From NCBI GenBank assembly GCA_051294905.1, contig CM119372.1:35032001-35096000 (forward strand): DNA of 64,000 nt. Direction: 5' to 3'. Of the stretch, positions 2,582-28,529 are shown piece by piece; the first letter of the stretch is position 1; every line of letters begins with the position of its first letter. Source of the DNA: Botryllus schlosseri (lineage: Eukaryota). The notes beneath the pieces were generated by a model. The model saw only the letters and a program-made list of their open reading frames with translations, made no database searches and was not told where the DNA came from. Position numbers and translations under genes: made by a program.

Positions 2582-5553
2582 GTCATCCAAATATGCGTAA
2601 ATTCGCGCTACGTCACGTTGACAAATGATAACGAGTTCATCAGCATTGGAGGAGATGATGTCGTGGGACTTTTTAGCAAAAAGGTGAGACATCTTACAAA
2701 AATACAACATATTTGCATACGAACTTATATGTCAGGACATGCCAATATTAAAATGTACTTCCTGGTGTTTCACGGTATGTTTCAAGTTACTTCATGACAT
2801 TTGTCCCTTTACCACAGGACTCTTCGCTGACAGTCAAAGCAGGTCATATTTTCACATCTGTCGTGTATTTGGGAATACTGCTCCAACCAGACATAATGAT
2901 ATTACCTGACCATCAATTCCATATCGTTCAGGACGACTTACGGAAAGCTTCGGCAACGAATATCGAAAAGGTTTAATGATGGGTTTTTTATCTACACATG
3001 TTACTTTGTCTTTGATCGTAGTATAACGCTCTGCCCATCCCTTAATTAGGATAGGAAGTACTGATTTACGCCTTGATATCGATAAGTCATATGTTTGTTC
3101 ATTACGTTCATTACACGCTTTCACACTTTCTAGTCTGATCGGTGCGTGAGTGGAAACCTTCAATAATATTGTAGATGACACCAGGGCTCGCTTTACTGAA
3201 AATTGCCTGGCCTATCCCCAAGTTACTATCATGTTCAATTATTTTTAAGCCAACGTGTAACGTTACTTTCAGATCAGTACCATGACGCTAGACTGCACTG
3301 AAGCAACGACAATCGATTGGTCCTTAATAAAAGCATTTGCAGATAAGTACAAGGTCACCTTACCGGGGTGTAGCAAAAATATTATATTCAATATCGTCTT
3401 TTAATTTCATTTGTAGGTTAAAACTCTGGATGTTGCTATAATTGCTGCGGCTACGAGTCCTGAAGAATGTAAAAGGATTTCGAAACACAGGGATGAAATT
3501 TCAAGCTATGGTATTGACGTAAATATTCAGTGGTTGTACGAGATTCAGAATGCAGAAGACGCTTTGTTTATGCATGATGACTATAAGCAAAAATCGGTAT
3601 GGGATAAGTCATGCCATTGGACGCTTCAGTCAGAAATTGCTTGAACGCCTATCTTTCTTTTCAGGTCGGTTATGTCATATCGGTACTCACCTACCCCGCA
3701 TCGCTTGACGAGATTCTCAATATTATCTCAAATTGCAATTCAAAGAAACTCACACTGATGTCCCAGTTTCACGGTAGCATGCTCAGTGACACGGAACTGG
3801 ACACCATTCAGGCGCATTCACGAAGCCGTGGACTCGATACAACAGTTTTGTTCGGTGAGTTGAGTATTTAGTAACATTCACTGACGCTTGTGCATAACGA
3901 TATGTGTCCCATATGGAGATTGAACGGCTCTTCAATGTTTAGCCATTTACGGAAAAGTAAATTACCAATATTAACTAATGTGTTTAGAAATAAGAATTAC
4001 GCCAATATCATTGACTGAGTAGGCCTTCCCGTTGCAGGGTATAATGAACATATTTATAGGCGTAATGACTGTTCGTTCATGTAGTTTCACAGCACGATCA
4101 CAACACGAGTACTCTCATGAACAGGGTACCGAACAATGATCCAATTTCCGGGTTTCTAATTTACTTTATAACAATCATTTAAAGGTTGTTCCCATGCATT
4201 TAATACATTGATAATGAGGGCTCCATACAAACGTCGGAGAGCGTATGATTAGTGATTACTGGCGTAAGGGGGGAAGAGGTAGGCCTACCCCGAACCGCCA
4301 CCTTAGCGCACCAGCGTAGGTTATGATCGTTCCATAACGGGACTAGTGTAAATATGCATCCTACGAATAAGTTGGATTATAGAGAAAAGGGGTAAGGGAA
4401 CGCACTTACTCGATTTCGCCGAACGTCAACAACCGAAGAAGTAACGTTTAAATTCTACTGTAATATCATCATGTAATGCAAATGATTGAAAACAAAATAG
4501 TTAAGCTCTCTCTTAAGTAGGTATTAAAAAGGCACGTATCATCGCTTACACGCCCTCCCCGTATAACTAGTCTACCGCCGGTGATGCATGGTATACCTAG
4601 TACGTCACCTTAACAGATTGTTGCTTCCTCAAATCAATCGGAATAATAAAATGCAGTCTATACAAAATATCTTGGTCTAGTTAATTGGTACAATGTTACT
4701 TTTCTGCGATAACGTTACGTACGAACAAACTATTCCACAGATCTGGAAATCCCTTCCGAAACGGTTACAGTTTTCGTCGGACCAAACGCAAAGGAAATAG
4801 AAGTTGGGGGCAGTAGCGTTCGATTTGCCACTGACAGTTTCAAGGAAGTTGAAGAAGTCACTGTCCGATCAGAAATTAACCCGATGAAATATCCAAGAGG
4901 AAGGGAAGCCATCGCACCTACTTTGACCATCAACGCTCCAAACTTGAGAGTGCCAGCAACGGTGAAACTACATACATGGTGCATGGCGGAAGGGTGCGAG
5001 GACGAGATCGATATAATGCGTTATGATGACAAGACCATGATATGGGAAAAGATAGACTGCGATATTGTTGTAGATTGCAATTTTATTTCATTCAACAGAT
5101 CTCACTTCTCTCCTGTCGGTGCATTCTGTAAGACAGGGAATAGTTCGTCGAAAATGTCCTACTTTATGACACCACTCGTTTACTACATGGATGTGGGCTA
5201 TTCGTTGGCTTTGATCGCGAGAAACAGGCTAATGAAGAAGCGTTTAGAACGACGCATGAGAAAGGATTACGGGAAAAATGTAAAGAGACACCAGTTCGCA
5301 ACTTACCGTTTCAAAAGTAAAAATCGCATAAACATGTCAATCAGCTGTCCGAATCATCCGAATTCGTATTTTATGCCGGATGCAACTTTTGATAAAAGAA
5401 TTAGGGATATAAAAAGAAATGAACCTGAACCAGTCTTCCGGAAATACACTCTGGAAAATATTCCACCAATGTCAGATACAATTTCGATACAATGGGAGTT
5501 GAAGAAAGATGGCGAGCAGTATGACGTCGGATCATTTCATCCTTTTAAAAGAG
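2582..5553 (+). CDS. Multi-exon gene encoding an uncharacterised N-terminal region followed by a ZU5 + UPA-like module with an HFS motif (PIDD1/UNC5CL/FIIND-like); 5' and 3' ends unresolved
   Basis: Exons 2582-2683, 2818-2970, 3273-3353, 3417-3596, 3665-3854 and 4741-5553 all have AG/GT boundaries and splice in one open frame (intron phases 0,0,0,0,1). The last exon reads VFVGPNAKEIEVGGSSVRF...EAIAPTLTINAPNLRVPATVKLHTW...WEKI...FNRSHFSPVG, which fits a ZU5 pattern. Possible small downstream exons lie near 5736-5755, 5902-5939 and 6422 onward. Confidence 0.7.
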
Positions 5554-7500
5554 GTCAGTTTTTTACAAATTATATCCATAAATCATATTGACTCAATTAA
5601 TAGGATAATTAGATATTTTAGATGTAAAAATAAATATGAGGATATTGTGCCCATTCAATATCTGGCAATTAGTTACAGTCGCTATAAATTTTCTAATACA
5701 ACATCGTACAATCGCACAGACCTGGATTCCCACAGCTGATTACGAAAAGTATGATGTGAGTAGCATTTTTGAATTTCTTTCGTAAATATCGGAGATTTTT
5801 GGGGAACCTCACAAAAACTAGTCTCCGTCGAACTCGTAAATGATCATAATGGATGGCCTTATATAATAATTCTTATGTTCAATGAACACATCTTGCAATA
5901 GAATACGTCAAAGCATGCGTCGTCGGGTACAGCGAATTCGTGAGTGATATTCACTATCTTTTTACTGCAATTTTGCTTCGAAAATTATACAACATTCGTG
6001 TCAAACTCGGCAGATTAGATTTAGCTGGAGTAGATCCATAGGACCCCTAACCATGCTATAGGCCTATGTTAGTGAATCAACAAATACGACAATGTAACCG
6101 GTTATCATGCCTACCTCTAAAATGCAGCGATGAATTATCGAAAAGTTTGTGACACTTTGATGTGACAAGCTACGAATGTAAGCAAAGGGACGTTATTCCA
6201 TACATAACGCCGAAAGTTTGATTTTGGATTCCCGCCTCGCAATACTAGCTGTACTCAAATGAACTTTAGACTGCCTGACTGCACTTATAGTAATGGACGT
6301 TGAAGTTAATGTTGCTGAAAGCGAAAACTTATTTAATTGCAGAAACGTTTTGCATCCACGAACCTTGCCATTTTGTTGAAGACGAATTTGGAAAGATCAT
6401 AATTGTAACTTTTTCATACAGCAAGTCGAACTTCAACAGCAGTGGAGAAGCCATCGGGATCAAAATATTTATTCATTAAAAACATGAAGCTGACTGCGAG
6501 GAACGTGCTGACAGACCATGCCAAATTAACGGAAGATCACGATGGAACTCATGAGAGCATACATTCAAACCAAACTTGAATTCACCTACGCAGTTAGTGA
6601 AACAATGACCGCCTTTGCGATTTACCTGTCATCAATGGACTAGACAATGTGTAGCGTTAAACGAAACGATGGTGAGATTTGTCACTTGGTCAATAAATAC
6701 CAGCAAAAAGCAAAATTTGTGACAAGCAAGTCGCATTGCGCTATTGCTATATCATTTGCATACTGAATCGATTAGGTCTGCATAAAGTCTTTAATTATAT
6801 ATTAGACATATACAGCGTTTCATTTTTAACTGCGGTGTAGTATTTCCGAGTATCAGTCGATTAGTCCACGTATTTCTTAAAACATTGACAGATCCAGATT
6901 TGAACAGAATTTCTTATGTATGTGAGCGGTTATCAAATCAAATCTAGGCCCGTGCTCATCGGTCGTAAATGCGGGGTGACCGGTTTTGTCCACTGGTGCG
7001 TGAACGTGGACAGGGTGTGTTCAGATCAAAATCTTCAATTTATTAATACGGAGAGATCCCGAATGAATTCTATCGATCCGAATCGTACCCCTAGACCGAA
7101 AACCGTCACCTGTTCTCTCTGATGCCTGCTACCAGTCCATATAATAATATGGTATATATTTAGTGTCTATATTGAATCGTATGATTGGTTACTTGGAAGA
7201 TATAAGACGATTTATTTATATCGGCCATTCGTTGTGTTCTTTCATTTCTCCGTAGGGATAGCAATTATCATCGTACAATATATATTGGCCCATTACAGTT
7301 ATGAATAGTGTATGTACCCTATATATATGTATACCGTTCCTGGCGACAATGATTTTATCTGTATATTATATAATGATCTTTGTCTGCTAGTACTGAGTTG
7401 ATTATTCAACATTGTAGTCTGTATCAGTGCTTGTAAACCTTTTTGGAATGGTACGCTCGTCGATTAGTGATAGAGCTGTGTATCGCAGTGTTCTGACATT

Positions 7501-7530
7501 ATAAATAAATAAATAAATAAATAAATAAAT
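7501..7530 (+). repeat. (ATAA)n microsatellite, possibly the 3' tail of a non-LTR retroelement
   Basis: ataaataaataaataaataaataaataaat. Confidence 0.8.
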
Positions 7531-7822
7531 GTATGTAGTTCTACAAGCACGAAGTGTCATCATTTGTCAATTGTCGATGTGAATGATTCTGTCGAGGACG
7601 TGCACTGAATAAACCGATAATTTCAATTTAGCATCTCTTCATATGTAAATACATCTCTTATTGTTCAATATATGCCTCTGGAATGATGATATTGACAGGG
7701 ATATGACCTCGATAATGAGCATGGAAGGTGAGCATATCAATGAAAATGTAAAACGGTGTTTAAAGTATTGAAAGGTTGCTTGTAAGTTTCAATGAAGTAG
7801 CTAGGCAGTTATACGTTATCAT

Positions 7823-8450
7823 TAGGGCGATTTTTACCTAAAAAACGGAAGATTTTGACCTAAAAAGTCTAAATTTTGACTTTTTTGACCTAAAAAAAAA
7901 CTGACATTTGACCATATTTTGACCTCACGTATGCAAATTAGGTGTTTTCGCACATTATGTGGAAATTGTACTACTTATCTTCATTCCTGGTTGGAACTGT
8001 CTGTCCTTACAAAGTAGATGGGCCTGACAAAACGTTTTTGACTCAAAAACTGACAAATTTTTACATGAAAAACTAGTATTTTAACGAAATCTGGCCCTAT
8101 GCAGAATTCCAGTAGTTACATTACGTATTATAGTGGAAATAATTAAAATTTGTTGTAGTACAACGAAAGAAAGATACTTTCCTACATTCTCGGGTAGAAA
8201 GTGTCTGCCCTTACTAATTAGCTTGCCAAGAATGGAGAAAGAACGTTCAACAGCAGCAGTTGTTGACTGACAACACTGAAGTTGTGCGCACACTGCTGGT
8301 GACACACCGTGTTGCTTCATTCTGACAATGTTGTCTATATCAGTGCTCTTCAACCTGACTGGTACACCCCTGACCGGATAACTCCGTACAGTAATCCTAG
8401 ACCAAGGCTGTTCACTGTTCAACCTCCTTGTTATTCACGGCCGTGCTTCG
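7823..8450 (-). mobile_element. hAT transposon remnant: transposase C-terminal dimerisation region plus subterminal repeats
   Basis: ORF 8081-8422 (-) contains QSTTAAVERSFSILGKLI...FLPENV, matching the hAT TS(A)xxERxFS motif. TTTTGACC repeats and a TAGGGC terminus occur at ~7823-7925. Confidence 0.75.
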
Positions 8451-8518
8451 ATTCCTTGCATAGCATACAATCGCATTCCGGCGTAGAGTTGTAATGGCCC
8501 ATCTGGGCGTCATATAAT

Positions 8519-9256
8519 CAGGACTCTAACTGCCGCACCCCAAACCAATCGATTGGGGGGGGGGCGAGCTCGAAGGAGGCCCAAACTTATTTATTGAATA
8601 AACATAAATTATCTAGTTTATTTTAAAAATTTGTTCAACTTTATTCAATTTTTTTCCTATGCTCGATTTAATGTCAAATTTCTTGATTATTGGGTAGCCT
8701 TCCCCAAGATAAAATATGCAAGATTAATAGCAATGGGCAGTTCTGGTGTCGGCCATTATCGTGCCACGACTCTCCAAGAAATTTAACAAAATGCGATCCT
8801 AGAAGTGTGCCAGAATGATCGGCAGCGAGAAAACATTGGCCAAAAAGGACCGCCCTTGTCCTGACTGAAAACCCCGAGGGGACCAAGGGGCGCGCCCGAA
8901 TTATTTTTATTTACGGGCCCTACATTTTCCAAAACATTTCATTTTGATTGTAAATCTTAAAGTAAATCTGATTACCTGGGCAGAGAGAGAGAATAACAAA
9001 CTTTATAACAATATGTATGCAATTTCTGATATTATTGACGGATTCAATCTCGAATTATAGAAAATTTTACTCCTCGCGCGGTCTTACGCTATAAACTAGC
9101 ACTCTAACGTGTATTACAAATTTCGCTGACAAAGTAGCGGTTATAAATCGCAGACCGTGATGAGAGGCCTACTGTTTGGTTTATGACGCTATGGGGACCA
9201 ATGCCAAGACCAATGTTTTTTTAGGGGGGGGCTGACGAAGTGCTGTTTCGGCCCTG
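8519..9256 (+). mobile_element. MITE family A (TIR consensus CAGGGCCG(T/A)AAC), near full-length copy
   Basis: Starts caggactctaactgccgcacccc and ends gctgtttcggccctg. Flanked by catataat / catatact (7/8 TSD match), which indicates the hAT type. Related copies lie at ~1560-1986, 25160-25900, 33632-35939, 44409-45377, 50669-51620 and 58973-60153. Confidence 0.8.
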
Positions 9257-10011
9257 CATATACTGCATATATATGTTAAATTGGCTATTGGCAACTTCAC
9301 GGCGCCGAGAGCGCTTGTGGTGTTCTGCGCCATCACTGACTTCTTGAGGTATACCTAGCGTATAGAAGTTTTTAATTGTAACAGTAGTCGCGCGGGGCGC
9401 TAAAAACTTTTACATGTGGAAGATTTATTTCGTCTATAATATGGGTAATTTCATATATTACTGTCAACTATTTATCGATTATTGGTACACGTTAATGATT
9501 AAGCCAGTGGTTCCCAACCTGGGGGTAAAATTACCCCCCGGGGGTCAATTTGGCATTTTTGGGGGGGGTAAAAAGGGGTCGGATTTTAAGTAAAAAAATA
9601 ATTGTTGTATTCATTGTTTTCTTCGTACTTTTGTGAAAAAAAATATAAAAATTCAAAGGTGACTTTCGTCAGTGGGTGTGCACAGCTTTTCCAAACTTCA
9701 TAATGGCGCCGTCCTATCATAGCAATTTACAGCGAAGCCAAAGAGGAAGTCAAAGCACGATGCGATCATAGCAATTTACAGCGTAGCTGGCATGGAGAGT
9801 TCCATCTGAATACGATCGATGTTGTGGTTTACAGCGACACCTATCGCTAGCGTAATACTTTTTAGCCGTCATTCAGATTTCAGAACAGAGATGTAAACAT
9901 TAGCCGTACTAACGCTGTCTTCCGATACTTGTGGAGATCATTTCAATAGTTGCTAAATTAGGATATATAAAAGCAATGTTTTCTTCTGTGTGATGACTGC
10001 ATCTATTCTGC

Positions 10012-10111
10012 NNNNNNNNNNNNNNNNNNNNNNNNNNNNNNNNNNNNNNNNNNNNNNNNNNNNNNNNNNNNNNNNNNNNNNNNNNNNNNNNNNNNNNNNN
10101 NNNNNNNNNNN
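10012..10111. other. Assembly gap (100 N, true size unknown)
   Basis: Run of exactly 100 n characters. Confidence 0.99.
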
Positions 10112-10112
10112 T

Positions 10113-10459
10113 GAAGACGAAAGTGGATAGTGCGAAATGGAGGATGGGTAGATGATTTACAAGCTTTGCTTGGGATGTACAAATTATCTTTTAGCATGAG
10201 ATATATATTGTATCTGCTCTCCAGAGCCCATATCATCTCTAGATGATGAAACTCAGCTTTACCTTACAATTCGCATCCCAATTCATATTCTACGACACGA
10301 TAACTTTCCTCCGTATGATCATCAAGGCTTCTATTTTTGTTGCAGGATGGCTTTGTAGGATTCTTTGATAATACCGCTTTCGACTACAATAAAGTTTGGA
10401 AGGGACTCGTGTTTGTCGGAATCGGACTGACATCTATTGCAATGGCATTATCAAGATAA
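10113..10459 (+). CDS. Partial second copy of the Bcl-2-family gene: end of exon 1 (10113-10147) and exon 2 (10346-10459); 5' part lost in the gap
   Basis: Reads ...KWIVRNGGW|gt...ag|DGFVGFFDNTAFDYNKVWKGLVFVGIGLTSIAMALSR*. It is the reverse complement of 17726-18072. Confidence 0.8.
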
Positions 10460-11769
10460 TGGATGTTCGCATGTTTTGTCTCATGTAATATTTTAGGAAT
10501 AAAATTCTTCATCGTTTAATCGCATCCATTTTACTGAAGGATCTATACAGTTTCTTCTGAGAATACTCGAAGGATTGCCCCATATGGAAACCTTCTTTAT
10601 ACTTTTAATTTTTCAAATTTCTACAGCTACGTAAGGGAATTGTTAGGGTTACCCAGAATACGCTGCAGGTCAAATTTGATTCGATTACTGACATTATAGG
10701 GACAGAGATTTGCGATAGTGTAAAATAACCTACCTTACGACATCAAATTTCGTCTTCTCTCCAAATGGAAATATAATGTTCTATAATATTGTCTATACCG
10801 AACAAATATAAATTTGCCTGTGCTGTTGCTTTGCAAGAATACTTCGCTCACATAGTAACGAATTTCTGGTGATAAAGCTTCAGCCATGATACTCTGGTGA
10901 TTTTTTTTCAATATAGTTGAGAAATGAAATAACGCACCCTTCGGACTGTGTAACCTGTTCCATTTTTATACGCTTGTAAGTCGTCCCGGGCTTGCGTGTG
11001 TCAACGGGTATGCAGTAATCATTTTCTTCGCTACCTGAAATGGAGCGAGTTAGCTTCAAACTCAACGCATTAGCATACCGAATTTAAATATAGACGATAA
11101 ATAATATACAGTATAGCTCCACTTAATTAATTCATAATATTTTAACTACCGCGAGATTCGAGTAATAAGCGGGGCTAGAGACTCTACCCTTAACAGAGAA
11201 CTTGCATATACATTCGAATTTACGCGACTTCGGCTATATTGTCGGTTAACATTATAGCCGCGCACAGAACTCATTATTACGTTATAAGCTATTGGAGAAA
11301 TCTCAACGTAATTCAATCTGCGTGCACAATCCACGTAAGCTAATGCCGCATCGAGAAATCATAGCTAAATTTAGTTTAAATCGACACGAAAATACATGGA
11401 TCTTACCTTGCCTGCGATGCCTGCCTCATTCGCTGTGCACATGAAAATACTTGAAACAGAAATGTGAAGTTTTCAGAATGCGAATTGCTTTACGTCGGAA
11501 GTAAGCATTCTAATTCGTATCGCCAACGCGGCATTTTCTTGGAAACGCAACTTTATTTATAATGTTCTAATTCATATTGTCGATGTGGCCCGACTTCTTG
11601 GAATCGTAATCAACTATATTCGTGGCGCATTTACACGCGTCAATTTCTTGGAATAGTATTCGGCAATATGCGCGGCGCATGAGCTTTCGCGTGATTGTAG
11701 GCATCTATGCTCGTAAAATAGGGCTTTCGTTGATATTAAACTGGGCTAATTTCGAAATGTAAATTGAAA

Positions 11770-12430
11770 AACTCAAATATCGCATAGAAGGACTTGCCAA
11801 ATTTTCGGTATATATTTGCTATTTTTTCACGGTAATGATAAGTCATTCACGACAGCGAAATGCATTGTAGGAAATAGATGACACTGGTACAATTCATCAA
11901 GACCCCTGAAAAAAAAAGTACATTACATTTCAACATTTTATTAGCAGGTAATCGAAATACCACAAACTGTGCTAACCTTTGGAGTTGCTAAGTAAAGAAG
12001 TACACGTACTTTTTCAGAGTATACCAAGTAGGTTTTTTGCATACATGCACCAAATACTCTCAAGTCCTTATGATATCGGAGTGCTTCAACTTCATGATAG
12101 TTATAGTATTAAGCAGAAATATATCTGGAGTACTAACGTTTTACTTACTCGGAAATGACTGCTTCTATCTTATTTTAAAGGATTCCTCGCTCGACGCGTA
12201 ATTTTATGAGGTTTTGAATAATATCCAACATATAGGCTCACTTTGAAGTGTACTTCGTAAAACTCAAATATTGCACAGTGAGAGTTCGCAAATTCTCAAT
12301 GTATTTTTGGTATTTTTATTGCGGTAAGTCATTCTGCGGCGCGAAAATGCATCGTAGGATATAGATGAAACTGACACCGCTCACCAAGGCCACTGAAAAG
12401 AAGTCCATTTCAACATTTTAGTAGCAGTAA
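11770..12430. repeat. Diverged direct duplication of ~180 bp (11770-11950 versus 12260-12430), mirrored in the right palindrome arm
   Basis: Both copies start aaaactcaaatat and end atttcaacatttta(t/g)tagcag. Confidence 0.75.
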
Positions 12431-15400
12431 ATTCCGAGTAAAGGACAAGAAGTGATGATTTTCGAGTGAGTTAAAAAGTAAGTATTGCAGGTATAGTTTG
12501 CTCGAAAAACCGACAAATATGAAATAGAAGTAGATGCAGTGTGAATAGTTAATCACTTGATTAAGTATAGCGCAAGCAGGCCAAACCTATACTTGAGTAC
12601 TCCAAAATGTGCAAGTACTTCACTATCGACTCACTCCACGTAAAAAGTGACTAGGTTTTAGAGTACTTTATCAGTTCTTGACAGTTTCAGTTTTAGACAA
12701 AATTTGGAATAAAAAACTAGCTCATTCAACCATTCGGAAATCTCTTCTTTTACCTATACTTGAGTGTAGCAAGTAAATCTCATTTATTATTAATTCTACA
12801 TGTACTTGTACACTTGACCATGTGTTATGAGTTACATAATTACTTTTCGCTATATTTGAAGTCTGTCAAATAGCAGTATATGTTACGGTAAGCTTCTATT
12901 CGTTCTGTTAGATCATCTTGACTAACGATATTCATTCGACGAGCCCTTCAGTGATAGTCCTGGGACTTGGAACAGTGTTATATGACATCATAGCGATACG
13001 AAGTTACGACAGTTTAAAATTATCCACCTTACGACACCAAATTTCGTTAGTTCATCTCCACCTTCAAATATCGTGTTATACAAATATTGTGTATACGGGA
13101 TGAATACATATATACTTATGTTGTTGCAATCTTCAAAAAAGTACCTCCCTCAGTAAGCAATTTCTCGTAGGCCATGCATACAAATGAGGACAGTTACATA
13201 AACGAGTGGTAACTTGTTGTATTATGTAGCTAGTAATTAGTGCAAGTAAGTCCGCAACTACTGTTCAAGGCCCTTTCCTCGTTTTTACCAAGCATCCTCG
13301 TAAGGATAGACAGACCCAATCAGCTAATGCAAGTGTGTGTACTGTGTATGTATGGATGACGGGTCTTATGCCGCTTGACGAATGAAGTTGATCGTATATT
13401 CTATTCCGAAATAATCAAGTTGGTGGTTTTTAACAGGACCTCATCTCGTAGAAACTTATAACTCCTCACGTTTACTCAAGTAAATCTAATTTGATAATCA
13501 AGTAGGCCTACTGAATCTTATTTTTCCAACGAGTTCAAATTTAGCTCTAACTTATGAGATTAAATATAATAACTTTTCATGTTGCAGTGTAATTTACAGC
13601 ATGAGCCAAGTGATTTCATAATTAACACAAGATAAATAAATGAATTACTAGAGTATCAGAAGATATTCCTGTCATCCTCCTTCGTGTATCATAAAAGAAT
13701 ACCTACTGCAGGCGATTTGTAATTATTTGCGCTGTGTTTGATTAACTCAATCATGTTGCAGTGTTTTTTAATAGCGAAACTCAGCATAATCCAAGTAATT
13801 TCATGATAAACACAAGCTAATTGAATGAATTAACATTAAAGTAGCTTGGGCTTACGTTTGTATCACCTTGACAAATGGCATTATCAGTCATGAAAATGAT
13901 ATTATCACCAAGTTAACACACGTCAATGTGGTTCGGAATTCACGAGAAATTGGTTACTAAGAGAAGTATATTCTTGTATACACACTAGCGGAGAGAATCT
14001 TTAAAATGTAGTAAGCAGGCCGATGGGTATTCGTTGAGTTGTACAAGCATAAAAAACATTCCCGCGCGCTCATGAACCTAATTCTTTCTAACCCTACCAC
14101 CTAATCCTAAGACGCGCGCGGGAATGTTTTTTATGCTTGTACAACTCAACGAATACCCATCGGCCTGCTTACTACATTTTAAAGATTCTCTCCGCTAGTG
14201 TGTATACAAGAATATACTTCTCTTAGTAACCAATTTCTCGTGAATTCCGAACCACATTGACGTGTGTTAACTTGGTGATAATATCATTTTCATGACTGAT
14301 AATGCCATTTGTCAAGGTGATACAAACGTAAGCCCAAGCTACTTTAATGTTAATTCATTCAATTAGCTTGTGTTTATCATGAAATTACTTGGATTATGCT
14401 GAGTTTCGCTATTAAAAAACACTGCAACATGATTGAGTTAATCAAACACAGCGCAAATAATTACAAATCGCCTGCAGTAGGTATTCTTTTATGATACACG
14501 AAGGAGGATGACAGGAATATCTTCTGATACTCTAGTAATTCATTTATTTATCTTGTGTTAATTATGAAATCACTTGGCTCATGCTGTAAATTACACTGCA
14601 ACATGAAAAGTTATTATATTTAATCTCATAAGTTAGAGCTAAATTTGAACTCGTTGGAAAAATAAGATTCAGTAGGCCTACTTGATTATCAAATTAGATT
14701 TACTTGAGTAAACGTGAGGAGTTATAAGTTTCTACGAGATGAGGTCCTGTTAAAAACCACCAACTTGATTATTTCGGAATAGAATATACGATCAACTTCA
14801 TTCGTCAAGCGGCATAAGACCCGTCATCCATACATACACAGTACACACACTTGCATTAGCTGATTGGGTCTGTCTATCCTTACGAGGATGCTTGGTAAAA
14901 ACGAGGAAAGGGCCTTGAACAGTAGTTGCGGACTTACTTGCACTAATTACTAGCTACATAATACAACAAGTTACCACTCGTTTATGTAACTGTCCTCATT
15001 TGTATGCATGGCCTACGAGAAATTGCTTACTGAGGGAGGTACTTTTTTGAAGATTGCAACAACATAAGTATATATGTATTCATCCCGTATACACAATATT
15101 TGTATAACACGATATTTGAAGGTGGAGATGAACTAACGAAATTTGGTGTCGTAAGGTGGATAATTTTAAACTGTCGTAACTTCGTATCGCTATGATGTCA
15201 TATAACACTGTTCCAAGTCCCAGGACTATCACTGAAGGGCTCGTCGAATGAATATCGTTAGTCAAGATGATCTAACAGAACGAATAGAAGCTTACCGTAA
15301 CATATACTGCTATTTGACAGACTTCAAATATAGCGAAAAGTAATTATGTAACTCATAACACATGGTCAAGTGTACAAGTACATGTAGAATTAATAATAAA

Positions 15401-16529
15401 TGAGATTTACTTGCTACACTCAAGTATAGGTAAAAGAAGAGATTTCCGAATGGTTGAATGAGCTAGTTTTTTATTCCAAATTTTGTCTAAAACTGAAACT
15501 GTCAAGAACTGATAAAGTACTCTAAAACCTAGTCACTTTTTACGTGGAGTGAGTCGATAGTGAAGTACTTGCACATTTTGGAGTACTCAAGTATAGGTTT
15601 GGCCTGCTTGCGCTATACTTAATCAAGTGATTAACTATTCACACTGCATCTACTTCTATTTCATATTTGTCGGTTTTTCGAGCAAACTATACCTGCAATA
15701 CTTACTTTTTAACTCACTCGAAAATCATCACTTCTTGTCCTTTACTCGGAATTTACTGCTACTAAAATGTTGAAATGGACTTCTTTTCAGTGGCCTTGGT
15801 GAGCGGTGTCAGTTTCATCTATATCCTACGATGCATTTTCGCGCCGCAGAATGACTTACCGCAATAAAAATACCAAAAATACATTGAGAATTTGCGAACT
15901 CTCACTGTGCAATATTTGAGTTTTACGAAGTACACTTCAAAGTGAGCCTATATGTTGGATATTATTCAAAACCTCATAAAATTACGCGTCGAGCGAGGAA
16001 TCCTTTAAAATAAGATAGAAGCAGTCATTTCCGAGTAAGTAAAACGTTAGTACTCCAGATATATTTCTGCTTAATACTATAACTATCATGAAGTTGAAGC
16101 ACTCCGATATCATAAGGACTTGAGAGTATTTGGTGCATGTATGCAAAAAACCTACTTGGTATACTCTGAAAAAGTACGTGTACTTCTTTACTTAGCAACT
16201 CCAAAGGTTAGCACAGTTTGTGGTATTTCGATTACCTGCTAATAAAATGTTGAAATGTAATGTACTTTTTTTTTCAGGGGTCTTGATGAATTGTACCAGT
16301 GTCATCTATTTCCTACAATGCATTTCGCTGTCGTGAATGACTTATCATTACCGTGAAAAAATAGCAAATATATACCGAAAATTTGGCAAGTCCTTCTATG
16401 CGATATTTGAGTTTTTCAATTTACATTTCGAAATTAGCCCAGTTTAATATCAACGAAAGCCCTATTTTACGAGCATAGATGCCTACAATCACGCGAAAGC
16501 TCATGCGCCGCGCATATTGCCGAATACTA

Positions 16530-16647
16530 TTCCAAGAAATTGACGCGTGTAAATGCGCCACGAATATAGTTGATTACGATTCCAAGAAGTCGGGCCACAT
16601 CGACAATATGAATTAGAACATTATAAATAAAGTTGCGTTTCCAAGAA
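16530..16647 (+). promoter_or_regulatory. Cluster of three STAT-type GAS motifs (TTCCAAGAA) upstream of a candidate spliced transcript; mirror copy at ~11536-11653
   Basis: TTCCAAGAA occurs at 16530, 16580 and 16639 (TTC-N3-GAA consensus). A TATAAATA lies at 16622, a strong donor AAG|GTAAG at 16776/16777 and an acceptor ccatttcag at 17148. Confidence 0.4.
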
Positions 16648-17148
16648 AATGCCGCGTTGGCGATACGAATTAGAATGCTTACTTCCGACGTAAAGCAATT
16701 CGCATTCTGAAAACTTCACATTTCTGTTTCAAGTATTTTCATGTGCACAGCGAATGAGGCAGGCATCGCAGGCAAGGTAAGATCCATGTATTTTCGTGTC
16801 GATTTAAACTAAATTTAGCTATGATTTCTCGATGCGGCATTAGCTTACGTGGATTGTGCACGCAGATTGAATTACGTTGAGATTTCTCCAATAGCTTATA
16901 ACGTAATAATGAGTTCTGTGCGCGGCTATAATGTTAACCGACAATATAGCCGAAGTCGCGTAAATTCGAATGTATATGCAAGTTCTCTGTTAAGGGTAGA
17001 GTCTCTAGCCCCGCTTATTACTCGAATCTCGCGGTAGTTAAAATATTATGAATTAATTAAGTGGAGCTATACTGTATATTATTTATCGTCTATATTTAAA
17101 TTCGGTATGCTAATGCGTTGAGTTTGAAGCTAACTCGCTCCATTTCAG

Positions 17149-17451
17149 GTAGCGAAGAAAATGATTACTGCATACCCGTTGACACACGCAAGCCCGGGAC
17201 GACTTACAAGCGTATAAAAATGGAACAGGTTACACAGTCCGAAGGGTGCGTTATTTCATTTCTCAACTATATTGAAAAAAAAAATCACCAGAGTATCATG
17301 GCTGAAGCTTTATCACCAGAAATTCGTTACTATGTGAGCGAAGTATTCTTGCAAAGCAACAGCACAGGCAAATTTATATTTGTTCGGTATAGACAATATT
17401 ATAGAACATTATATTTCCATTTGGAGAGAAGACGAAATTTGATGTCGTAAG
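17149..17451 (+). pseudogene. Exon-like segment of an unidentified gene, apparently frameshifted, with weak resemblance to a Schlafen/AlbA_2 domain
   Basis: AG/GT-bounded exon. From the ATG at 17220 it reads MEQVTQSEGCVISFLNY...EIRYYVSEVFLQSNSTGKFIF, with FGIDN continuing in a shifted frame. Confidence 0.3.
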
Positions 17452-17725
17452 GTAGGTTATTTTACACTATCGCAAATCTCTGTCCCTATAATGTCAGTAA
17501 TCGAATCAAATTTGACCTGCAGCGTATTCTGGGTAACCCTAACAATTCCCTTACGTAGCTGTAGAAATTTGAAAAATTAAAAGTATAAAGAAGGTTTCCA
17601 TATGGGGCAATCCTTCGAGTATTCTCAGAAGAAACTGTATAGATCCTTCAGTAAAATGGATGCGATTAAACGATGAAGAATTTTATTCCTAAAATATTAC
17701 ATGAGACAAAACATGCGAACATCCA

Positions 17726-18508
17726 TTATCTTGATAATGCCATTGCAATAGATGTCAGTCCGATTCCGACAAACACGAGTCCCTTCCAAACTTTATTGTA
17801 GTCGAAAGCGGTATTATCAAAGAATCCTACAAAGCCATCCTGCAACAAAAATAGAAGCCTTGATGATCATACGGAGGAAAGTTATCGTGTCGTAGAATAT
17901 GAATTGGGATGCGAATTGTAAGGTAAAGCTGAGTTTCATCATCTAGAGATGATATGGGCTCTGGAGAGCAGATACAATATATATCTCATGCTAAAAGATA
18001 ATTTGTACATCCCAAGCAAAGCTTGTAAATCATCTACCCATCCTCCATTTCGCACTATCCACTTTCGTCTTCTGCTAGCAATGTATTTCCCGGCTGTCTG
18101 TATGATAGCTTCTATATGCTCCCCGTGATGTTCATCCTCGTTCTTGCGAGCAAGAATGCTAGCGAGCACAAAAAGGGAGACGATCCTACCCCAACTTTCT
18201 TTGGTATCTTTGAAAATTTCATCAGCTATCATCAGGAACATTCGCTCATCGGGTAAATATTCTTTATATTTTTCATTGACTTCAACACCACTATAGCGGA
18301 GACGTTTGGAGACCGCTTTTAGGACAGTTCGATGTCGCTCGAACATTTCATTCCCAACTCGACGTAAGGTTCTCTCTGCTTTCGTATTTACCTTAACACA
18401 TGAGCCGTCGAGTTCGTACATGATAAAATTCCTGAACAAGGAATATGCTTCGGATATAATTTCATCCTTTTCTTCAGTGATCGAAGGTGATACTCGTGAT
18501 AATTCCAT
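17726..18508 (-). CDS. Bcl-2 family apoptosis regulator, Mcl-1-like, 194 aa, two exons (18508-18038 and 17839-17726)
   Basis: BH4-like EAYSLFRNFIMYEL, BH3 TLRRVGNEMFERH, BH1 EIFKDTKESWGRIVSLF and BH2 WIVRNGGW|DGFVGFF, with the phase-0 intron at the conserved GGW position. C-terminal TM anchor VWKGLVFVGIGLTSIAMAL. An in-frame stop lies upstream of the ATG. Confidence 0.93.
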
Positions 18509-19254
18509 GCTTTGAGGAGAATAGCGAGTCAGAGCTTATTTCGAGATCTAAGCTACTTTGAAAATGAGGATCCTAGGATTTTCTCAAGTTTCATCTATAT
18601 CGTACAATGCCTTTTCGTGGTCCAGAATGACTTATGGCGATGAAAAATGGCAAAAATGAAAAAGTACTCAATACGCTATCGGTGGTAGCACAAGGCAATT
18701 AATTTTATCTCGACTCAGCAGACTGACTACCATAAAATCGCATTGATGTCGTCATGAAGATAATTACCTACGATCAAAACCCTCTAAATATCACCCCCTA
18801 GCACCATATAATTGCAAAATAACGGTTGCATACTCTACATTTTGGCTTCATTTCAATTTTGAAAGTTCACGGGTCCCTTTTTATTATAATTATTATTCAT
18901 TTTACAAAAACGTCGTGCAAAGGTAAAGTACTTGTACATTTCGTAGTGCTGAAGTATAAGTTTTGAAACTATTAACTTGCCAAAATTTTCAGAATATCAA
19001 CTTTTGCGTGAAGTCTGTCTTGCATTTAGTTGTCGGCTCTGGAAGCAAGCAAAGTTTGTGGTATTTGCATAACATCGAAATTTTTATACTTCACGCTTAT
19101 CTTATATCGAAAACATAAGTTAGTTAACAATATTTCGAATCATGGGTATGAATAATTTTCAAAAACCTAAACATGCCGCATCCAAACTTCGTAAATATTT
19201 TCGATTAGTTTTTTTCGATTCTATCTACTTCATAAGACTCAGTGTAGAAGTTTC

Positions 19255-20300
19255 GAAACTTGCATGAATTACAAGCTACATAATACAATTAGTTAACACG
19301 CGTTGATGTAACTTTCCTCATTTGTATGCATAACCTACAAACAACGACGCTGAAATTCTACTTCAGACACAGCAAAGTGTGTGAGACTGCCTGTAAAAAT
19401 TGCGCGAAGGTACAATTCTCGGCTTATAGCAAAATTAACTTAGTTTTGATTAATGAAAAATATAGTGATTGAAAATAGATCACTGGATTATAGTTTACAG
19501 AAAACTCCACAATTCTATTTGACGTCCTTGCATGCCAACAACCTTCGAGCTATTCGCCACCTCATAAACACTTGAGTAGGCCTACATTTGATGCGTGTGG
19601 GGAAAACCTAGGTAAATTTTCATATGCATTTAGTCTCCAGCTCTGAAAGCAAGCTTGGTCTATGATCAATAGCAACATTTGCTTCGCAAACTCGATCCCG
19701 TGGCTGCGTAAGCATGTATTCTGCGCTATTCATAAGATGGGCGCAGGAAGCACCAGTAAAATGTACCGTTAGGCTATGAAAAGGGGTGTATTATTTATCG
19801 CCTATATTAAAATTCAGTGTGCTAATGCGTTGAGGTTGAAGCTAAAACATCCTATTTCATGCGACCAAGAAGAGTAGCACCGCGTAGGCGAATTTAGCAT
19901 ACCGAAAAATATCTACTTTACAAAATTTTCATTTCTTTATGTCCATTAGAGTCGTGTTCATGCGACGAATTTGTCCGACTCCGACTTACTTGCATGAATT
20001 ACAAGCTACATAATACAACTAGTTAACATAGAAATTAGGTGTGCTATCTTACCAATCGGTATGGAACAACATCAAAATAATCACAAAGCAATATCTCCTT
20101 TTGCGTGAATTCTGTTATGCGTCTTACTACGTTACTATGCGCACATGCTTACAGGCGTTCAAACGTGCACTTTCAACTATATTCGCTCCTAACATTATCT
20201 TTCCTCTGCATGATCATTAGGGCTTCTATTTTTTGTCGCAGGGCAACTTTGTTATAGCCGAAAGCGGTATTATCTAGCAACAAGGTTTAAATGACTCGCC
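19255..20300 (+). pseudogene. Degraded older duplicate fragments of the Bcl-2 locus and its neighbouring sequence
   Basis: 19259-19338 and 19983-20028 resemble 14932-15017. 19789-19875 resembles 17077-17165. 20198-20300 resembles the Bcl-2 intron acceptor and exon 2 (10303-10408). Confidence 0.65.
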
Positions 20301-21285
20301 TCCGACGTTTATTGAGCGTATTACCCGTATTCTCGTCATGCAAAAATTATGCATGTATTAGTATGAAGCTCAGATGCAGCAAAGTGTGTGAGACTGCTGG
20401 ACTTTCTACTATATTCGCTCCGAACATTATAGCAGCACCCGACGTTGCTTACATTATTACGTTATAAGACGCCGGCGGCGTTTCACTGTCGGTTTAATCA
20501 CCCTTATTCTAGTGACATGAAAAGGACTGAATCGTATGAAATGTAGTCACTACAAGAATCGAGCGAAAGCGCTGTTTCACGTCGTCTTGCATCGGTCACG
20601 ATTAGTTTTACTTTTCAACTAACTTGTTGTCTGTCGTTATATTCATTAGACTCGCTTTCATGCGGCTAATTTGACCTTATCATTATAACGTCGGTGATCG
20701 CGTACCTGCGGCGAAGGTGTTCGTTTAATTATAACAACGAGAACCGGACCCCTGCGGCTAGCCGTTGGCATTTTAGTGCTGAGGTAAATACCCTTATACT
20801 CGACATGCAAACATTATACAGGTAGCGGTTATACTGCGAGCTGATGAATTCGTCATCTATTCGCCCAGCGTAGTTGTTCCTAATCCCGACCTTCCGCTCG
20901 TATCGTAGGCCTATATACTACAAGCCAGTGATCGCTACATCAAACAAAACGGTCAGATCGAACGCAAGAACTCGGATTGCAGTGTCGGACGGCAGCAAAG
21001 CGGTGTACCTCGAAACATCAACCGATCTGGAGGATTTCAGCTAGTGAATCGACGCAATAGCGATCAACGATATTATTGATATGCTCTTTTTACGAAATAA
21101 AATGAACTCGTACACTATACAATGCTATTTCAAGGAGACTGAGTAAAGTGTTAGAAGATATGAAAAGCGCTGAATTCTAACGTATAATGAATGGTATTTA
21201 TTTCTCGGAAGCAAGTTATTCAATACATATTGCTAAATACACATGGAAAATCGGTATTGAAATTCACAAAACATTAGAATATCTA

Positions 21286-21438
21286 GGCGTGGCAATGGGC
21301 GTCATATAGGCGTGGTGATTAGGGTTGGGCATGAAAAGGGGCGTGGCAATTAGGATGATGTGGCAATGTAGGCGTGGCAATTAAGGAGACGTGGCCTTCT
21401 GGGATTGGTCGGTCTATAACCCAGCTAAGTCTACTACT
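21286..21438. mobile_element. Possible Polinton/Maverick terminal inverted repeat end
   Basis: Several GGCGTGG(C) subterminal motifs end in CTACTACT (21431-21438), the reverse complement of an AGTAGTAG Polinton-type terminus. Confidence 0.4.
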
Positions 21439-23130
21439 TAGATATCTTCTGAGCAAGAGCCAATCCGGCGAAACCAATGTGATATTCCTAATCAGCAGCC
21501 TCGATAACCCCAGCAACGGCTCAGATGTTCTGCCGATTTTTTTTCTTCATTTTGTAGACCAGTGTGATCAATAGTGCGATATACGAGATCTGGACCGTCA
21601 TAGTGTCGATTGGGATGCAGCCGCAATTTTGTAGATGCAGTCGGTTTCTAGTCAGAGGTATGTTTAATTGTTTATAGAATTTGTCTCAAATAAACGAGAG
21701 TTGAGGTGTTTTTTTATCCTTAGAAGTACCACAATATTTAGCAGGAGTGTCTTAAATGTCCCTCGCGGAAGAATTGTGTTCCACGATCCAAGTGACTTGG
21801 CCTGCAACTTACATATCCCTAATTTTGCCCCGTCTCCAACGTTCGATTGTGTACATATGTTTAGTGCGGTCGAGGCACACAGCCTTATCGTAAGACTATA
21901 TGTAATCTACTTTGTAACGACACAGAACTCTGAATTCCTGATATAGAAGTTGTGTAAATAGAGTCACTTTACGGTACTTGCCTATTTTCAGTGTAGCACT
22001 TCCACTCATGAAATATCCCTCTACCAATATCGAAGATGACACTCTTATCTGATACACCAGGTTTCCGTTAATCGACAGTTAACCCAGCGCCTATGTAGTC
22101 TATCCTATCCCACACAACGACCGCATTCTACGCCAGCGCAAAAAGCTATCAGGATTGTACGGTCGGAACTAATTTAGTGCTGGCGAAATTTACAATATCG
22201 TAGTTTATATGCGTCACGGCGTAATGTGATCGACGTATCTAAAATCCATTCAGTGACGTAGACGTAACGTCGATAAGCGTGATATTGGGCGTATATTATC
22301 GATTTGACTCTGGACTGCACGGTAAGCATTACACGCGAGCGTATAACGTCAGGTGAATAAGCGTTTCAGATTGATTATGGTTTCAAAGTAGGTGACTCGA
22401 TTTCGAACGGCACGCTGTTAAAGCAATATAATTCGCATTACGGAAAGCCCTATTGAATATTGAACTAGTACACCAGCAGTAAACCGATTATAATGTGTTC
22501 AAGTGTAGCGACACTATAGTTCCATTGGCATAGTCTACTGTCAGCTATACTTTACGTGTACCTTCAAATATGTTGCAGAATTTGTCTGTGTTACGGTAGA
22601 CGGAAATACCATTCACATTTGCCTTGCAAATTTTTATAAGTGATGTTCTATTTATATCTATACCTGCTGCAACAGCAATAGCAATGTTAATTCTATTCAC
22701 ACCCATGATGAATCCCTTGAATATGACTGTATATTTCAAACTTAATAGACAATACCAAACCAAGTTCAAATACACATGCATGAATTCATGAAACAAGGAA
22801 TGCCGTCACAAACCTGCCGCAGACGTTTACATCGACAATAAAATGCGATCACACTGATGTTGTTAAAACTCATTTCGGACAATAACACGATGATTACAGT
22901 TCTGACATGAGGTATAGAACAGAGATTGACTGGACGGTGTGCATGGATGCTGAAAAATAATAGTTGTGATGATGATTGCACTGCACAACACATGTGAAAC
23001 GAACTCAAACTGGAGACCTGCACCTATTCAAATCACGCGCATTGCGTATTGGGATGAAGAAGAAGATTGATCGTGATGTGACACGGAGGAAACCACGAGC
23101 AATGTCATATACGCACGTACAATAACATAC

Positions 23131-24458
23131 TCATCTAAATTTCTTTTGTATTTCATAACTTCAGCAACTAGTTTTCCCGAAAACCTGTGAATCGTGATGC
23201 AATGAATGACACCATATATACATGCACGATCGACTGAATACTACGTTATCCATGCATTTTCCGACTTAAATTCCATCTTTGGCAGAACCATGCCAGGATT
23301 GGAGTTGACTGGTAACGGCGCTTTGTTCCTTAGATACATGTCCTCCAACCACCAATCGTACGACTGACGAGGAAAGGTGATAATTGAGATTGTATGTCCA
23401 AAGGAAGACAGACGAACTCACCCAATTCTCATACTTTGTTGACTTTCTGAGCAGACTTTCCTGTAGAGTCGCGCCAATTCCACTCGGCGTTGCGAATTTG
23501 TCGACTATTCTCTTAGTTTTATCGAATTGCACTTCTGGTACCAGTGGTTTGATACACAACAAATACCTTTCCGAGGTTTCCGCGAGATCCGGCACTGGTA
23601 ACGATGGAAGCTTTGCCTGCAACAGATTTTAGGGGCTGTATTGCATTAGTTTGAATCCGGTATGTTTCCTGAGCATTACTGTTTCATTCATGGGTATTTA
23701 CGGCGTCAGAACTACAACTTTATTACTTGGTAGGAATTTCTACTCAACTAAATTCCACGTGTCAATTGAATTGTTCATTCTACACTCTTGTTAGTACAAA
23801 ACCATAAAAAATCGTTAGTTATAGGGTAAAGATATCTGAAGGGACAGATTCAAGTCATTGGACTGCTTGTCTACTAAAATCTCATCTTAAAACAGCATAA
23901 GTTCCATGTTCTGTTGTTACTTCATCTTCTATCAGTAAACAGAACTACATACACGTGTTTGATACATTATATTGCTATCGGTCACTAAAAGCAAAGTGCA
24001 CAAAATCTGAAGATAAATCCGTCTGCAGCAAACTGCAAATACCAATAACCCCCGAACTTGGTCACATCATTCCGTGAATAATTGAACATAAAATTTATAA
24101 TACCGCATCATTTAGCGAGTTTAGCAATAATATCGTGACGATATTTCTAGTAATACTACAGACAAAAACTGCTACACAAGGCCGATTGAATTGGTAAGTT
24201 ACTGAAAATACTACCAGATAACACAGCTTTAGTATCTAACCAGTTCCGGAAATTGATCCGCTCCAAGTGATTAATCTAGTGAATAATCCGATAAATCTTA
24301 CAGCTGGGAGAACCATTGGGTCTCCTCAGATTATCACTAGGTTACTAATCTATAGATTTTAATTATTATTCCTATTTGCCAACCTGATGTAGCAAGGCTT
24401 TTCGACTATCCTGGTCAAGTTCCAAAATCTGTTTTGTCTTCATTTTCCTCCTCGGCAT
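23131..24458 (-). CDS. ChAT: Choline O-acetyltransferase-like (choline/carnitine acyltransferase family); N-terminal exons only
   Basis: Exons 24458-24384 (MPRRK...LLHQ), 23616-23422 (AKLPSLPVPDL...ENW), 23363-23245 (SYDWWLEDMYLRNKAPLPVNSNPGMVLPK) and 23184-23131 (FSGKLVAEVMKYKRNLD) splice in frame with GT/AG. DMYL and LPVNSNPG favour ChAT over CRAT. Confidence 0.8.
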
Positions 24459-25159
24459 TTTCCAGTTGAATAATATGTAACGAATTAGGCGTGAAATACT
24501 TGAAATGGTACAGACTAGAGCGGTAGAAGCTGCAAAAACATTCAAGCAAAGTTTAGTATATACAGGAACGTACGGGGAGACTGTAGGGGAAACTGTATCT
24601 TACTGAAAGTCGATGGAAATTTAATTAAATGCGGACCAGCGAAACTATTGATTTTTCTTAAACCTCGTCGCTTGGTATCTTGTGCGTCTTAAGATTAAAT
24701 GAAAGGGGATAAGATTGATTTGTCCATGAGGTAATCTTGAATATCCGCAGATCGTCGCAACGTGACGATTCAATACTGTGAAATACTGCTATCGATATGA
24801 CTAGTTTTCTAAATTCTTGAATAGGTGATTACAAATTCGTTGTTTCAAAACGTGACCCAATAATCGAATTGACCTATCCCTGGTATGGAATTGGTGACTG
24901 TAAAAAATCACGTGTGAATCAGTTAATCCACTTATGCTGCTGGTGAGATGTAAATACTGTCCGACAATGTAACCTAATCGATTTTCCTGCTCCATATTTA
25001 TTGTTCTCAAAGAATCCAAGCGAGTTACTATATTTCGGCACATTGGATGGACACAGTTGTCAGTTACAGTTGTCAGTTATCTTGATTGTTAGGTAACTCT
25101 CCCCAAGAAAACCGTGCATGATTGATAGAAATGTGCGACGACTATTACTACGCTATGAC

Positions 25160-25900
25160 GCACCAATACCCATGAACTTTTAGACCATGTAACAAGCCAC
25201 TCCGAGAAGTGTGCCAGAATGATCGGCAGAGAGAAAACCTTGGCCGAAAAGGACTGCCCTTAGGCTGACCGAAAACTTCGATATAAATACACATGTTTAA
25301 TAGTTCATAGGAGCCTAAATGGCAGGCGCCGAAAGTTCCTGTCCAGGCACCTGAACCCCACGAAACAGAGAAAAAATCAATGAAGAAAAACCAATTTGAA
25401 ATCGTGTGCGTCTTTTAGTGTCTAACATTTGGGCGATTTCAATATCTTTTAAAATCGTAGCAGACATGAGGTCACGAAATAACATCATGTAACGAAGTCA
25501 TTATACCAACGGGTCCGCCCGAATATGTTTAATTATATGTTATTTATGGCCCCTGGATTTTCTAAGACTACACGTCACTCAGCTCTACCGTTAGATCTGA
25601 TTATATGAGCAGAGAGAGGGTAAAAATTTCGAAAGCAATATACATGATACAATACCCTCTTATAATGACCGATTCAACCATGAATTATAGAAAATTTTCG
25701 AGCTTTGCGCAATTAGGCGAATTAAGCAAGCTCACTAACCAGTACAACAAATCTTGATGTGAAAAGGTCGAGTCTGACGGAGCGTCTGGAGGTCGAAGCC
25801 CCCCCCCCAGAAAATATGCCTCATCGCCAAATGGGGGGCCCAAGACAAGCGTTTTTTTTTGGGGGGGGTAGGGGGCTGACGAAGTGCTGTTTCGGCCCTG
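25160..25900 (+). mobile_element. MITE family A, 5'-truncated copy
   Basis: Shares the internal gtgccagaatgatcggcag...ctgaccgaaaacttcg blocks and the terminus gaagtgctgtttcggccctg. Confidence 0.75.
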
Positions 25901-26065
25901 TGGAAGACGTCAATGCCCTTATGCAGTCAATATAACATTAAAAGGCACACCTTAAACCCACAGTAACAATCCCCAATTATACAATGAACTTTCTTCCTTG
26001 ATAGAACTGTTAAAAAACTTATTCATTTCCCGTCATGGTACTTCCAATATCATTTAACTTCTTTT

Positions 26066-26930: not shown

Positions 26931-27388
26931 TAATTTTCACACAAAACAAAAACGTTGTGAAGAATATTAATTCCTAATCAACGCTACGTACAAGAAAACG
27001 ACGTTGGGGTACGTGTCTTTTTATCAAAAACCAGCCGTTTAATCATAGCTTAAACCTGCATACCAACGTGTTGGGCCGTCATATGTTCAGAGAGAGAGGT
27101 CATATCGCCTACCTATGCCTGTCATATACGACTACAAATAGAACAATGCAAGTATTACAATATCGATGTAATTGTTCTATTACCCAGTTATAACGGTGTC
27201 AATCTCGATGCAACAAGCAAAAATATTGTGGGTTTATCAATACACTTAGCAGAATGTCGTAGCCACATGCCGCAAGAATTGGATGCTGCGATACGGCCGA
27301 GACGCTACCGAATTTACAAGGTAAATCGAAGGTAAATTTCAATGCGAATTAATACCGATGATTTGTCGTGATGGATCACAATCTAGAT

Positions 27389-28460: not shown

Positions 28461-28529
28461 ATCTAGATACTCCCAAAATTCGATGGTTGCCCCTCGACAG
28501 GAATCATTACAATCAAACACGACTGGGGA

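Follow-up and report, generated by a model that had tools for sequence, protein, structure and literature searches.

The 64,000-nt window analysed here (Botryllus schlosseri assembly GCA_051294905.1, contig CM119372.1, positions 35,032,001 to 35,096,000; all coordinates below are those of the window) contains a palindrome of about 8 kb with a Bcl-2-like gene, which a first-pass annotation, made from the sequence without database searches, had described as a tail-to-tail duplication. We consider it probable that this palindrome is the central part of a single, gap-truncated copy of a palindromic, non-autonomous Maverick/Polinton derivative of about 14.7 kb that carries Bcl-2. Each 7325-nt arm would end in AGTAGT and hold one inward-pointing, two-exon Bcl-2-like gene, with a 44-nt loop between the arms. 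The duplication of a single-copy host Bcl-2 gene was not borne out: the gene belongs to a repeat present in many copies, which reaches 3.4 kb past the palindrome as first delimited and stops there at a Maverick-type end.

Architecture of the palindrome

Self-comparison of the window recovers a single long inverted repeat, at 10113-18072. Together with global alignment, it places the assembled part of the left arm at 10113-14069 (plus strand, 3957 nt) and the part of the right arm that is mirrored in the assembly at 14114-18072 (minus strand, 3959 nt). In the global alignment the arms show no substitution over 3957 nt and a single 2-nt homopolymer difference, T8 at 10901-10908 (plus strand) against A10 in the mirror at 17275-17284, with an upper 95% bound on inter-arm divergence of 0.08%. 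This palindromic match is far beyond chance, and the arms were made identical very recently; the near-perfect palindrome of the first-pass annotation, with its arms of about 3.96 kb, its spacer length, its homopolymer-only difference and its recent identity, is thereby confirmed. The central loop (14070-14113, 44 nt) is unpaired according to alignment, predicted fold and contig coverage; it is itself unstructured in the fold, and a G+C-rich stem base closes it (CCCGCGCGC / GCGCGCGGG). One strand of the loop is C/T-rich with degenerate CCTAA units, which we take to resemble telomere repeats. Rfam gave no match over 9000-24000.

The outer right arm (18073-21438, minus strand) is unmirrored in the assembly and belongs by depth to the same high-copy repeat, with internal modules in common with the inner arm (70-97% internal repeats). 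The arm as a whole (14114-21438) is made up of dispersed modules of 40-200 nt, each present two to three times at 70-97% identity (for example, 15756-15948, 16236-16439, and 18587-18657; 14936-15016, 19258-19338, and 19983-20028), which are perhaps old promoter or gene-end modules.

Copy number and divergence of the repeat

Four of 24 listed public runs were compared with 14030-22000: the contig sets X1, X5, and X15, and the RNA run X23. Depth was high in 28 of 28 bins across 14030-21477 in all three contig sets, and dropped in the last bin (29.9 in X1, 73.6 in X5, 0 in X15). Among single contigs of X5, depth was 1456-2149 in four from the arm and 45-52 in two from the flank (28 to 47 times the flank), and a contig at 20801-20982, near the element end, stood at 75-85 times the flank. 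The gene and the entire right half of the palindrome are a multi-copy repeat with tens of copies; from the single-copy flank we infer that the family is dispersed. Because exon and arm already exist in tens of copies, neither half depth over the arms nor droplet digital polymerase chain reaction of exon 2 against a single-copy gene, both proposed in the first-pass annotation, would be informative.

Relative to the long arm contigs that are listed, the window copy has another letter at 21 of 827 positions in X5 and at 40 of 1547 in X15 (five contigs), or about 2.5%. A common form in X5 and X15 also skips 245 nt (17281-17525) and, within the intron of the Bcl-2-like gene, 140 nt (17855-17994, with the joint 17854-17995); both segments are present in both window arms. 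Since the two arms have the same peculiarities, the copying of one arm from the other took place after divergence of the lineage to which the window copy belongs.

The fold-back centre in other data

The spacer site 14074 is covered by 20 contigs in X1, 10 in X5, and 3 in X15; the distance from there to the contig end is 40, 35, and 44 letters, respectively. For k = 31, a true hairpin predicts a loop contig of 14040-14143 in which 14074 would lie 35 letters short of the end, the distance seen in X5. An opposite-strand joint between 14045 and 14153 occurs in X1 and X5 with shorter sides of 40 and 55 letters; these must reach 14084 and 14099, and therefore cross the junction between left arm and spacer. 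Nearly all of the depth at 14074 has another letter than the window copy, so the spacer is both genomic and polymorphic. The fold-back centre is thus genomic, polymorphic, and present in a different study (X5). The arm-spacer junction is found in X5, X15, and X1 rather than being private to one library, as a fold-back artefact would be, and its occurrence in the data of another study means that the centre is neither adapter nor a single chimeric read; a library adapter as the source of the spacer was rejected, the spacer occurring in other runs with a natural variant. This evidence draws on the 24 loose ends listed out of 1167, and on the 15 joints listed out of 66. Further subfamilies that have only the centre in common are suggested by two loose ends in X5, at 14198 and 14273, and by the summed depth in the first, central bin, which is about 48,000.

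Element end and Maverick assignment

The right-hand boundary of the repeat coincides with ACTACT at 21433-21438 (plus strand; AGTAGTAGAC on the minus strand), a terminus of Maverick/Polinton type. There are 14 occurrences of the motif in the window, for a chance expectation of about 0.002 per 10 nt. The first letter of a single-copy contig of X1 is 21411; the first junction 31-mer predicted for an end at 21438 would begin 2 nt away, at 21409. The contig has 28 letters on the element side, below the 31-letter rule for bridging. G+C-rich subterminal direct repeats with GGCGTGG units (21286-21395) lie just before ACTACT, and the position of the end makes TAGATA (21439-21444, plus strand) a candidate 6-bp target-site duplication, with no partner beside the gap. 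In vertebrate Mavericks, (AGT)2//(ACT)2 is the commonest end, inverted repeats span 46-1447 bp, duplications are 6 bp long, and intact elements measure 12.7-24.6 kb (PMC8097293). Of the two Maverick end motifs considered, (AGT)2//(ACT)2 and (AG)3//(CT)3, the former is thus present here, at the right end only. A Helitron-type end, with a small hairpin at 21425-21441, was considered from the sequence and rejected, since it agrees less well with the data than do an AGTAGT terminus and a palindromic structure. The terminal 19-mer had no match in viral_contigs.

Among 61 frames of at least 42 residues in 14114-21438, none matches the PolB, integrase, ATPase, protease, or capsid families in Pfam; one passes the Pfam cut-off, that for Bcl-2, and the longest frames have 198 and 116 residues. 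The element is not an autonomous Maverick, because the core genes looked for are absent from these frames, and a multi-copy family that lacks core genes is what a non-autonomous Maverick derivative would present.

A scaffold gap of 100 N (10012-10111) ends one base before the left arm. By arithmetic, the mirror of 21438 is 6747, the predicted hidden part of the left arm is 3366 nt, and the mirrored end gives 7325-nt arms and a total of 14,694 nt; the inverted repeat is visible for the inner 3957 nt, and the outer 3366 nt of the left arm would fall in the gap. The stretch 1-10011 holds neither a mirror of 18073-21438 nor AGTAGTAG, and TAGATA occurs in it once, at 5610, not adjoining AGTAGT. Because such palindromes break assemblies, we infer that the gap hides the outer 3.4 kb of the left arm together with the left terminus and the sequence flanking it. 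The first-pass suggestion that the palindrome runs on into the gap is judged probable.

An N-terminal exon of a choline/carnitine acyltransferase lies at 23269-23628 on the minus strand, pointing toward the element (best match choline acetyltransferase, E 3.7e-16), and no further exon of it was found among 127 minus-strand frames in 1-10011, 21439-23268, and 23629-30000; for this reason, the contig on the other side of the gap probably does not adjoin the element directly. The 3' part of the gene thus lies within the gap or past it, and the two contigs may have been joined wrongly or with a large amount of sequence missing between them. No full-length relative of the exon was recovered at E 1e-10 among 296 candidates.

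The Bcl-2-like gene

A minus-strand frame at 17942-18535 matches the Bcl-2 family (PF00452, E 3.2e-21, 76 bits). The best solved relatives of the product are BCL2L10 and Mcl-1, with matches also to Bax and Bok, in keeping with the earlier label "Bcl-2/Mcl-1-like". Delimited by the Pfam and tail matches, the whole gene (18508-17726, minus strand) extends out of the palindromic right arm and comprises exon 1 (18038-18508; 157 codons in an open frame, with a BH4-like helix, BH3, BH1, and BH2), a putative 198-nt GT-AG intron after NGGW (17840-18037), and exon 2 (17726-17839; 37 codons for a hydrophobic tail and membrane anchor, 19-residue mean hydropathy 1.78). The closest named protein is bcl-2-like protein 2 of Styela clava (P0002, XP_039252627), which is 47-48% identical over the Bcl-2 domain, has its exon boundary at the same place after NGGW, and differs in an N-terminus about 47 residues longer; 17836-17729 matches its tail (residues 204-240) at 51% (E 1e-7). 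A single-exon read-through was rejected, since the tail matching P0002 follows only after a further 198 nt and is preceded by an AG. All four of the unspliced relatives compared (P0001, P0004, P0005, and P0006) continue with W-V-S after NGGW, as expected from a common splice donor. The protein P0003 from ENA is 93% identical to the exon 1 product and has the same start Met.

BH1 (SWGR), BH2 (WIVRNGGW), and the hydrophobic C-terminal anchor are all present in the product. At the Gly-Asp pair of BH3 the window copy reads Gly-Asn; other copies (X1, X5, X15, and X23) and P0003 have Gly-Asp. These domain features would place the product in the anti-apoptotic, multi-domain Bcl-2 class; BCL2L10 and Mcl-1, its best solved relatives, are pro-survival proteins, but Bax and Bok match as well. 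In X5, a low-depth (54) variant of exon 1 covers 18323-18497 with 16 differences in 175 letters; it is a divergent relative at single-copy level, possibly an old copy or the donor gene. Relatives of the Bcl-2 exon were confirmed in none of four pattern stretches in viral_contigs, and one of 65 in metagenome_contigs gave a weak 25-residue match (L001).

The left arm retains the last 35 nt of exon 1 (10113-10147, plus strand; the end of BH2), cut by the gap, followed by the 198-nt intron and a copy of exon 2 with the membrane anchor (10346-10459, plus strand; tblastn of P0002, E 5e-7). As assembled, the palindrome boundary falls inside exon 1, with one whole Bcl-2-like gene on the right and one fragment on the left. 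Of the two inward-pointing copies that the first-pass annotation placed at the outer ends, the right one is therefore whole and the left one amounts to these remains. The outer arm also contains, in the opposite orientation, another, degenerate relic of exon 2 and the end of the intron (20196-20274, plus strand), with 85-90% identity over 47 and 30 nt.

About 6 in 100 of the X23 RNA reads were read, and 657 were placed, 643 of them only partly. Exon 1 has a depth of 1-5 per direction, and depth is about 1 near the palindrome centre; the exon-1 reads hint at transcription of other copies, and are silent on the window copy and on double-stranded RNA. The highest RNA depth lies outside the Bcl-2-like gene, at 20680-21211 (16-35 per direction) and 18818-19083 (8-14 per direction). 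As most reads fit only partly, these may come from related elements with a common terminal region.

Proposed origin and propagation

A fold-back step during Maverick replication would account for such an element. Protein-primed strand-displacement synthesis starting from one Maverick end would fold back at the GCGCGC stem base and continue by copying the strand just made, which would yield a molecule each side of which has an origin of replication and an integrase end. Autonomous Mavericks of that genome could then supply the polymerase and integrase that copy and insert such palindromic molecules, making them helper-dependent. One arm would be rewritten from the other during fold-back copying, or when the self-paired strand is repaired, and this could leave the arms identical while the window copy is about 2.5% away from the commonest contigs of other runs. 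The Bcl-2-like gene, having kept its intron, would be cargo derived from the host, and may keep cells alive during replication of the element or its helper. A protein-primed model of replication was reportedly put forward for Mavericks by Kapitonov and Jurka in 2006. The accepted model of Maverick replication is likewise protein-primed (PMC6431247), and Bcl-2 and IAP homologues are reported in adintoviruses/Polintons (PMC8502044).

More tentatively, and with the balance of likelihood against it, the elements could form an integrated, heritable family of giant snap-back genomes that is parasitic on ascidian Maverick viruses and rewrites one arm from the other every time it is copied. A captured Bcl-2 gene, intron included, would then have been amplified to tens of copies because it protects host cells, perhaps those of the germ line or stem-cell pool, while the element or its helper replicates; it would be a selfish anti-death cassette spread by a palindrome that depends on a virus.

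Alternative explanations

Several points weigh against a palindromic Maverick derivative. The link to Mavericks is a single 6-bp motif, the left end and the duplication being hidden by the gap. Contig depth is a rough measure of copy number; summed depth does not give copy number at all, and the ratios come from single contigs of one run. Mean depth in X5 is still 1811 in the bin 21478-21743, past the proposed end. X1 could stem from the source individual or from one closely related to it (its flank contigs show 0 substitutions), which leaves X5 as the main independent run; X15 has the variants of X5 and may not be independent. In the contigs, the left arm beside the spacer can be seen for at most about 45 nt, not 4-7 kb, and polishing can erase true differences between near-identical arms. 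No splice joint for the Bcl-2-like gene is listed among the X23 reads, and the letter of the window copy at 18352 appears in 0 of 12 of them. Finally, four of the five listed exon-1 differences between the window copy and the others, with 414 further sites lying outside that comparison, alter a residue, one of them in BH3. Because most of these differences change a residue, including Asn at the BH3 Asp position, the window copy looks decayed rather than under selection.

One competing explanation accepts the family and its central hairpin as real and takes the left arm at this locus for an assembly artefact, in which a read folded at the natural hairpin, or right-arm reads were placed on both sides, at a contig end that was then scaffolded to an unrelated contig. 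The left arm does stand at a contig end one base from the gap, with zero substitutions and a homopolymer-only difference; both arms hold the segments 17281-17525 and 17855-17994 that the common X5/X15 form is missing; and the left contig has neither the left end of the element nor the rest of the flanking acyltransferase gene. Nanopore genomic libraries contain about 0.55-0.6% fold-back reads, and HiFi virtually none (PMC12870357). However, the same arm-spacer junction occurs at high depth in X5 and X15 contigs, so that no artefact is needed; random fold-backs would miss the family's own loop and would not keep both junctions; and a true 15-kb palindrome would itself be expected to break the contig. 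We regard this explanation as unlikely, though it deserves to be kept in mind: the fold-back read artefact raised in the first-pass annotation is weakened for the centre by the X5 and X15 contigs, and could still apply to the full length of the left arm of the window copy.

A different class of transposon would explain the arms without Mavericks, namely a long-armed, cut-and-paste Foldback/Mutator-like element with captured host DNA and an ordinary transposase, the AGTAGT being coincidental. Long, internally repetitive arms with subterminal direct repeats are indeed seen in Foldback and Galileo, and the 61 frames hold no Maverick gene; yet they hold no transposase remnant either, the (ACT)2 end falls exactly at the depth boundary, and identity of the arms beside divergence at family level calls for homogenisation linked to replication. 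This makes a Foldback-like origin improbable. Least credible is a recent local fold-back duplication, or a conversion-maintained palindrome, of the host Bcl-2 locus that doubles gene dose. It would suit the identity of the arms, the host-type intron, and a closest named relative that is a gene of Styela clava, but the presence of gene and arm in tens of copies with a sharp mobile-element end largely refutes it through the depth data; moreover, the same centre recurs in other runs, and one extra copy would barely alter the dose.

Other features of the window

A hAT dimerisation-domain remnant lies at 8084-8434 (minus strand; E 0.00088, under the Pfam cut-off), and a 292-residue open frame without a Pfam match at 4713-5588 (plus strand). 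On the minus strand, a rhodopsin-family receptor frame (39339-40121; PF00001, E 6e-13) ends after 261 residues and seems to continue in the adjacent frame (38715-39335) across a frameshift, a stop, or a small intron. A dispersed repeat family of 500-800 nt (74-84% identity) occurs in both orientations at 25135-25720, 33631-34795, 44565-45341, 50668-51501, and 59114-60122. Further repeat pairs are 30422/54827, 53723/60306, and 55790/61722, and a 93-nt inverted pair is present at 43229-43642.

Implications

Long perfect palindromes are normally unstable and rare, and the inverted repeats of Mavericks normally stay below 1.5 kb. If a multi-copy family consisting wholly of palindromes is confirmed, it would show Maverick replication in vivo, by fold-back and protein-primed copying, a step that is at present model-based, and it would reveal one way for a host regulator of cell death to be amplified by a virus-like element. 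For this genome, palindromes at contig ends are not to be dismissed or trimmed as read artefacts, the count of Bcl-2 family genes would be inflated by mobile copies, and the gap at 10012-10111 probably hides more than 3.4 kb.

Comparison with known systems

Whole-element palindromic Polintons, or such elements in ascidians or with Bcl-2 cargo, were not found in the literature searched, outside which lie the 2006 founding paper and the Repbase reports. Palindromic Polintons are not described in the available portions of PMC3014272 or 10.1101/2024.01.15.575659. The element is like a Maverick/Polinton in having (AGT)2//(ACT)2 at its one visible end and genes directed toward the centre, and in its predicted size of about 15 kb and predicted inverted terminal repeats (PMC8097293; PMC6431247). 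In contrast to Mavericks, it has no frame for polymerase, integrase, ATPase, protease, or capsid, its family runs to tens of copies, and its cargo gene has an intron; its inverted repeat would be 7.3 kb, or 99.7% of the element, against the 46-1447 bp given for vertebrate Mavericks (PMC8097293). Adintoviruses likewise combine a Bcl-2 homologue with a Maverick-type element (PMC8502044); there, Bcl-2 is an accessory gene of a coding element, whereas here it is the only recognisable gene and sits in a repeated arm.

Foldback and Galileo resemble the element in their long, internally repetitive inverted arms; they differ in their termini and mobilising enzyme, and the window arms would make up nearly the whole element and are identical. 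Kapitonov and Jurka are said to have reported non-autonomous Polintons in 2006, which likewise have Maverick ends without core genes and are presumed to be mobilised in trans. Snap-back or copy-back defective genomes and palindromic mini-replicons occur in adenovirus, phi29, and yeast linear plasmids. In these, an end is copied back to give a palindrome with an origin at both ends, dependent on a helper; they are transient and extrachromosomal, whereas the window element is integrated, heritable, amplified, and equipped with a host-type gene. By analogy with both systems, the element would work like a helper-dependent Maverick derivative and, at the same time, like a snap-back defective genome.

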